Shown: in pieces, positions 56,721 to 56,752 of the stretch | Layout: every line of letters starts with the position of its first letter | How positions within the stretch are numbered: the stretch's first letter is position 1 | DNA from: Escherichia coli 042 | Lineage (GTDB): Bacteria; Pseudomonadota; Gammaproteobacteria; Enterobacterales; Enterobacteriaceae | Assembly: GCF_000027125.1 (NCBI RefSeq) | Contig: NC_017626.1 | Length of the DNA stretch: 64,000 nucleotides | Reading direction: 5' to 3' (one strand) | Notes under the pieces: model-generated | Told to the model about the DNA's origin: nothing | Seen by the model: the letters and a program-made list of their open reading frames with translations, nothing else | The model's database searches: none | Translations under genes and position numbers: made by a program

Positions 56721-56752
56721 AGATGTCCAGATGTATTGACGTCCATTAACAC
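56721..56752. promoter_or_regulatory. Tandem met boxes (MetJ operator) in the metJ/metB divergent region
   Basis: Four contiguous 8-mers AGATGTCC AGATGTAT TGACGTCC ATTAACAC approximating the AGACGTCT met-box consensus. Confidence 0.65.

Follow-up and report, generated by a model that had tools for sequence, protein, structure and literature searches.

The MetJ operators of metJ/metB and metF at an Escherichia coli metJBLF locus with a variable metL-metF spacer are essentially those of K-12

The last 8 kb of the 64,000-nt stretch of DNA analysed here, which we call the window, hold the E. coli metJBLF cluster with two extra genes between metL and metF (Table 1). The DNA of the window matches E. 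coli chromosomes, and its metJ-metB region is up to 100% identical to that of some strains; the MetJ repressor it encodes is 100% identical to K-12 MetJ. In K-12 MG1655, metF comes directly after metL, with a spacer of 348 bp. The strain-specific segment that carries the two extra genes, here called P376 and Nuc517, measures 3006 bp in the window, versus 193 unrelated bp in K-12. Elsewhere in the window, Rfam matches above the gathering score were found for a selenocysteine insertion element (SECIS_3, 16083-16141, minus strand), the ClpQY (hslVU) promoter element (50545-50602, minus strand), an L31 ribosomal-protein leader before rpmE (55214-55266, plus strand) and, twice, the ES036 (CssrF) sRNA (10954-10996, plus strand, and 36852-36893, minus strand).

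Table 1. Features of the metJBLF locus, in positions of the window
Feature	Position	Strand	Basis or remark
metJ, repressor gene (105 aa)	56214-56531	-	Pfam MetJ PF01340, E = 7.6e-60
Promoter-like metJ site: -35 TGGACA (56729-56724), -10 TAGATT (56705-56700)	56700-56729	-	Consensus scan, 9/12
MetJ operator common to divergent metJ and metB, four in-phase boxes	56713-56744		31.18 bits
Putative metB promoter: -35 TTGACG (56736-56741), 17-nt spacer, -10 TACTCT (56759-56764)	56736-56764	+	By eye
ATTAACAC, not a met box	56745-56752		1/8 match to AGACGTCT, -14.46 bits
metB, cystathionine gamma-synthase	56808-57968	+	Pfam Cys_Met_Meta_PP, E = 1.7e-145; 99.5% identity with K-12
metL, aspartate kinase/homoserine dehydrogenase II	57971-60403	+	99.6% identity with K-12; RefSeq annotation, matching genomes
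P376, 376-aa Cys-rich "cytoplasmic protein"	60367-61497	-	No Pfam family
Strain-specific segment	60404-63409		No homology to the 193 bp of K-12 there (sensitive blastn and alignment)
Nuc517, 517-aa UshA-like metallophosphatase/5'-nucleotidase	61630-63183	+	Pfam Metallophos and 5_nucleotid_C; NCBIfam relatives
MetR-type palindrome TGAGTTTTTTTCA	63410-63422		7/8 arm bases of TGAANNNNNTTCA; first bases shared with K-12
Putative metF promoter: -35 TTGACG (63464-63469), 17-nt spacer, -10 CATCTT (63487-63492)	63464-63492	+	Inspection, conservation
MetJ operator of metF, four in-phase boxes	63492-63523		26.17 bits
metF, 5' part, truncated by the window end	63565-64000	+	99.3% identity with K-12 over 145 aa

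One MetJ homodimer binds each 8-bp met box, and repression needs at least two adjacent boxes (PMC3228920). Both control regions were scored, as the initial annotation had proposed, with the MetJ met-box weight matrix of Augustus & Spicer 2011 (Table 3 of PMC3228920), which was derived from 832 half-metboxes and gives the consensus AGACGTCT 12.58 bits. Under the published rule, an array consists of at least two boxes in phase, each of at least 3.145 bits (1/4 of the consensus) and together of at least 12.58 bits. Our implementation returned 31.18 bits for the K-12 metB/J operator (published, 31.2) and 24.92 bits for that of metF (published, 24.95). Three arrays pass the rule in the whole 64-kb window, among which metB/J ranks first and metF second.

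The operator shared by metJ and metB is made of the boxes AGAAGTTT AGATGTCC AGATGTAT TGACGTCC, each of which matches the consensus at 6 of 8 positions; they score 6.78, 8.96, 8.57 and 6.87 bits, respectively. Four 8-mers had initially been placed at 56721-56752. The 8-bp phase and the first three boxes of that proposal (AGATGTCC AGATGTAT TGACGTCC) are right, but the array was set one box (8 bp) too far to the right: it misses AGAAGTTT (56713-56720) and takes in ATTAACAC, which is no box, so that the span AGATGTCC AGATGTAT TGACGTCC ATTAACAC totals just 9.94 bits. The correct 32 bp are identical to those of the K-12 operator (31.2 bits; PMC3228920 Table S1, b3938/b3939), and the metJ-metB intergenic region aligns without gaps to K-12, with 3 differences in 301 bases (56520-56820 of the window), all outside the boxes. 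In K-12, the distance from this operator to metJ is 181 nt (PMC3228920).

For metF, the array had been located exactly: the matrix places its four boxes at the same coordinates, which are those of the 32-bp metF site of K-12 (PMC3228920 Table S1, b3941), in the same position and the same phase, with 30 of 32 bases identical. The boxes TTACATCT GGACGTCT AAATGGAT AGATGTTC have 5, 7, 4 and 5 consensus matches out of 8, with scores of 5.09, 10.35, 3.62 and 7.11 bits, for a total of 26.17 bits (K-12: 24.92). Two substitutions account for the difference. Box 3 reads AAACGGAT in K-12 and AAATGGAT in the window (63511 C>T), which lowers its score from 5.01 to 3.62 bits (-1.39), and box 4 reads AGATGTGC in K-12 and AGATGTTC in the window (63522 G>T), which raises its score from 4.47 to 7.11 bits (+2.64), a net gain of 1.25 bits. 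A comparison of spacing with K-12 had also been suggested; array and start codon are 63 nt apart at metB and 41 nt apart at metF, the same distances as in K-12. The claim that the arrays are retained at both metJ/metB and metF thus stands, with the same place, the same spacing and an identical repressor.

Single 8-mers above the per-box threshold are abundant in the window (593), and it could be argued that the two runs are chance resemblances in AT-rich intergenic DNA, devoid of any regulatory role. The third array in the window, with two boxes (GAATGTTT AAATGTCT, 18591-18606, 14.6 bits), does arise at chance level, and in front of an unrelated gene: it is found in AT-rich intergenic DNA, and the gene that begins about 275 bp downstream of it (18882-20276) encodes a RafY-like glycoporin. 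However, the background is lower than the two met arrays. We made 200 dinucleotide-preserving shuffles of the window, which contained a mean of 0.66 arrays each, the top array reaching 23.53 bits and the top four-box sum 16.54 bits. None of the 200 attained 26.17 bits, so that scores no better than background, the outcome that the initial annotation had named as its refutation, were not what we found; at 31.18 and 26.17 bits, the real arrays exceed all shuffles. Moreover, both sites are experimentally established K-12 operators listed in PMC3228920, and the metF array is kept across genera. Shuffle statistics and orthology to the characterised K-12 operators together rule out a chance origin of the two arrays, a reading to which we give practically no credence. 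As for the two-box array at 18591-18606, we rejected it as a MetJ operator, on the grounds of the chance rate (0.66 per shuffle) and of a porin gene without link to methionine.

Nineteen sequences (Escherichia, Pseudocitrobacter, Citrobacter, Klebsiella, Superficieibacter and Salmonella) have the metF array, with five different sets of genes upstream of it; in the 18 sequences other than the window, it scores 22.5 to 29.8 bits. The exact 48-bp variant of the window is present in 527 of 5426 complete E. coli genomes, among them that of CE10. This count was made by megablast with the 48-bp query, and only the exact-match count is usable, since the absence of a shared 28-bp exact word makes megablast blind to K-12-type operators. 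The two substitutions segregate independently of the upstream content: F070, which has an empty spacer, carries the first only, CRE287, with five genes, carries neither, and CE10 carries both. Both sites have the marks of MetJ operators, namely boxes in phase, scores that pass the matrix rule, a place before met genes, orthology to characterised K-12 operators that belong to the "known metboxes" training set of PMC3228920, and a cognate metJ encoded in the same genome. In sequence, scores, conservation and synteny, the two arrays are the K-12 operators themselves; the finding is real, ordinary and already known.

How would MetJ act at these sites? The putative metB -35 hexamer overlaps box 4 of the metB/J array, and the -35 hexamer of the promoter-like metJ site lies inside box 2. 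At metF, TTGAC is invariant and the -10 region is conserved in an alignment of eight metF upstream regions (window, K-12, E. whittamii, Pseudocitrobacter, S. arizonae, C. braakii, K. pneumoniae and Superficieibacter). A consensus promoter scan of both control regions did not find the metB and metF promoters, and a literature search found no mapped transcription starts for metB, metJ or metF. Since their hexamers are weak and were missed by the scan, we infer these promoters, and with them the occlusion mechanism and actual repression in this strain.

S-adenosylmethionine (SAM) is the co-repressor of MetJ. Each operator is a head-to-tail array of four 8-bp met boxes, to which MetJ would bind. 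On 56713-56744, the repressor would cover the metB -35 and one promoter-like -35 of metJ, and because the array overlies these putative -35 sites, binding there would shut off metBL and, in part, metJ. The weak autoregulation of metJ is accounted for by the three promoters stated for this gene, one of which is not repressible (PMC3228920). The metF array begins at the putative -10 and, as CATCTT abuts box 1, would span the expected transcription start and block RNA polymerase. Bound MetJ would in this way exclude RNA polymerase at all three promoters. Because arrays, repressor and the distances from arrays to promoters and start codons are all as in K-12, MetJ control would be expected to be intact whatever lies upstream; judging from sequence, we put at about 0.95 the probability that we are dealing with the classical MetJ operators of metJBLF, with control expected to be unimpaired.

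It had been claimed that the strain-specific segment ends just upstream of the metF control region, and this is borne out. From 63410 on, the window is again homologous to K-12, and the two align without gaps over the 155 bp up to the metF start codon. The last strain-specific base, 63409, lies 82 bp before box 1 and 54 bp before the -35 hexamer, and at that distance the junction leaves both promoter and operator of metF untouched. With promoter, operator and leader intact and the junction lying 82 bp before box 1, nothing in the sequence suggests that the module has led to a loss of MetJ control. As for the initial statement that this control was not disrupted, what the data show is that the sequence was retained.

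The conserved metF control block, about 155 bp long, takes in the promoter, the met boxes and the leader, and has a MetR-type palindrome at its upstream edge. In the eight-sequence alignment, conservation starts abruptly at the palindrome. Of 19 sequences, 18 have this element, at position -155 relative to the metF start codon (-154 in K. pneumoniae); it is perfect in 14 of the 18, its spacer varies, and it is always located 54 bp upstream of TTGAC. The element is a 13-bp palindrome with a fixed position and conserved arms; in the window, it differs by one arm mismatch (TGAG) from the palindrome TGAANNNNNTTCA of MetR, a LysR-type regulator (consensus cited in PMC3353975, PMC13393422). The MetR regulon predicted for Enterobacteriales includes metF (PMC4239095). 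MetR consensus matches with at most one mismatch occur in the window at chance frequency (32 found versus 31.2 expected), and the sole argument for the site at 63410 is therefore its conservation across genera. Our literature search found no documented MetR binding at this exact palindrome upstream of metF; a 1993 study in Salmonella is said to have dealt with MetR at metF. Another site that is one mismatch away from the MetR consensus, TGAGCTTTTTTCA (63566-63578), overlaps the metF start codon and is, taken alone, at chance level.

It may be asked whether metF regulation was altered although the operators were kept, by the TGAG half-site, by the substitutions in boxes 3 and 4, or by read-through from Nuc517. 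The half-site does go with the module: in the four module-bearing E. coli alleles examined, window included, it reads TGAG, versus a perfect TGAAG in the empty alleles of K-12 and F070. Yet real transcription-factor sites usually have one arm mismatch. The substitutions shift the scores of the two boxes, but their net effect is neutral to slightly favourable, T ranks second in frequency at position 4 of real boxes (218 of 832), and the variants are common as well as independent of the state of the module. Concerning read-through, Nuc517 and metF point in the same direction, and a scan found no canonical intrinsic terminator between them (63184-63410), so that transcription independent of MetJ may proceed from Nuc517 into metF. 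However, the terminator scan is insensitive, and its blank result is uninformative since the same scan finds none in the metL-metF spacer of K-12. Altogether, we regard an altered regulation of metF as distinctly improbable, and retain the reading of K-12-like operators under MetJ control.

P376 is named just "cytoplasmic protein" in databases, and its homologues are confined to Enterobacteriaceae. Searches with its sequence in Pfam, NCBIfam, PADLOC and PDB gave no significant match; zinc-ribbon matches at residues 73-106 were sub-threshold (IS1 N-terminal domain, 21.8 bits for a cut-off of 28), and an AlphaFold2 model built from a 22-sequence alignment was too poor for comparison (mean pLDDT 53). 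Among the homologues surveyed, the gene is always divergently paired with a Nuc517-type gene. From its translation, Nuc517 has a signal-peptide-like N-terminus. The 3' end of P376, on the minus strand, overlaps the last 37 nt of metL on the plus strand (60367-60403), its C-terminal ...NNCARRLISD being encoded antisense to the metL C-terminus; such an overlap is seen only in the Escherichia and Pseudocitrobacter two-gene alleles, and homologues elsewhere end differently. An inverted repeat with 27-bp arms (60418-60476) begins 15 nt past the stop codon of metL and falls within the conserved coding sequence of P376. It forms a highly stable RNA hairpin (-45 kcal/mol, z = -5.9, 0 of 200 shuffles) and is a candidate terminator of metBL, placed within an antisense gene.

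In E. coli, the metL-metF spacer exists as at least three alleles: empty (K-12, F070), two-gene (the window, 18KM2445) and five-gene (CFT073, CE10, CRE287). At least 80% of the query 60300-63600 of the window, in which the strain-specific segment is included, was covered in 1837 of 5426 E. coli genomes. The five-gene island, carried by many E. coli strains, comprises a Tsx-like channel, two further 5'-nucleotidases, P376 and Nuc517, and looks like a cassette for the scavenging of nucleosides or nucleotides (in the respective locus sequences, it lies at 12122-16269 in CFT073 and 1434-8624 in CRE287). It has the same right-hand end and the same junction with the metF control region as the window, where the Tsx-like gene and the two further nucleotidase genes are missing. 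Nuc517 of CE10 is 99.6% identical to that of the window, whereas the neighbouring P376 (1387-2514 of the CE10 locus sequence) is just 73% identical, the P376 of the window being the one that abuts metL, with the 37-nt overlap. The boundary of divergence between window and CE10 is sharp and falls in the divergent promoter region between P376 and Nuc517, which hints at allelic replacement of P376 within E. coli, or else at fast evolution or diversifying selection.

Beyond E. coli, a survey of one genome per species found P376 and Nuc517 between metL and metF in Pseudocitrobacter, several Citrobacter, three Klebsiella species, Superficieibacter, Kluyvera, S. enterica subsp. arizonae, E. whittamii and another Escherichia species. 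Citrobacter and Klebsiella have an extra LysR-type regulator between Nuc517 and metF (2899-3807 and 2897-3805 of the respective locus sequences), and E. whittamii an extra LacI-type regulator and a PTS EIICB gene (1602-4241 of its locus sequence). Despite these extra genes, the control block of about 155 bp is kept in front of metF.

The initial annotation spoke of an inserted two-gene segment, a polarity that our data do not favour. Had the segment recently been inserted, by horizontal transfer, into a metL-metF spacer that was ancestrally empty, this would account for a G+C content of 43-50% in the module versus 58-60% in metL, for its presence in only about a third of E. coli genomes, for its patchy distribution within Escherichia, and for the related cassettes found at other loci in Enterobacter, E. 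albertii and others; the IS1/InsA-like zinc ribbon of P376, although sub-threshold, points the same way. However, the same pair occupies the same site in at least seven other genera or species; of the marks of a mobile element or recent islet, the module has the deviating composition and not the absence from the same site in relatives. A neighbour-joining tree of P376 places the met-locus copies in species order (Klebsiella, Citrobacter, Escherichia), with the copies from other loci (Enterobacter, E. albertii, second copies) nested within them, and the divergence of Nuc517 tracks that of the flanking met genes (87.7% identity for K. pneumoniae, where MetL is at 90.9%; 89.4% for C. braakii, where MetL is at 94.1%). 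We found no terminal direct or inverted repeats, nor a target-site duplication, pairing 60404 and 63409. No transposase or integrase was recognised in the module, P376 having no Pfam family and no PADLOC match.

The K-12 site is no clean empty site either, as it holds 193 bp of unrelated DNA, in which sensitive blastn found no remnants of P376 or Nuc517. By eye, this spacer (6269-6461 of the locus sequence) shows palindromes, among them GCCGGATT...AATCCGGC and a CCGGT...ACCGG followed by a T-rich run. Given the presence of the pair in other taxa, the order of the tree, the absence of repeats and the 193 unrelated bp, the difference between the two strains is a replacement, and more probably reflects a loss in the K-12 lineage; recent insertion is unlikely, though it deserves to be taken seriously.

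One further observation speaks in favour of mobility. The proteins of the Pseudocitrobacter module are 94% (P376) and 97.6% (Nuc517) identical to those of E. coli, versus 92-94% for MetL, MetB and MetF. That the module is closer than its flanks suggests an exchange of the P376-Nuc517 cassette between Escherichia and Pseudocitrobacter, and the cassette could therefore move laterally, by recombination through conserved flanks. In Pseudocitrobacter vendiensis, the module is at 4363-7128 of the locus sequence.

A broader scenario can be considered, in which the metL-metF spacer is a long-lived recombination hot spot of Enterobacteriaceae. Cassettes centred on P376, as a putative zinc-ribbon protein, and on periplasmic 5'-nucleotidases would have been swapped, expanded or deleted there, some of them with a Tsx-like channel, a regulator of LysR or LacI type, or a PTS gene in addition. 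The right boundary would be fixed, to the base, at the MetR-type palindrome of metF, and the MetR input to metF perhaps changed along the way. As all module-bearing E. coli alleles examined have TGAG, the history of the spacer may have modified the input of MetR, and not of MetJ. We hold this scenario to be doubtful, and offer it as a tentative proposal.

The MetJ operators of metB/metJ and metF rank among the best-characterised bacterial repressor sites, and finding them here matters little in itself. What changes is how the locus should be described. The metB/J array is to be annotated at 56713-56744. The "insertion" is better seen as a structural allele, one of three or more, of a variable spacer that is old, and among these alleles the K-12 state is probably derived, by deletion. 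Finally, the conserved control block of metF reaches about 155 bp upstream of the start codon, up to the MetR-type palindrome, which marks the exact point where strain-specific DNA may begin upstream of metF.
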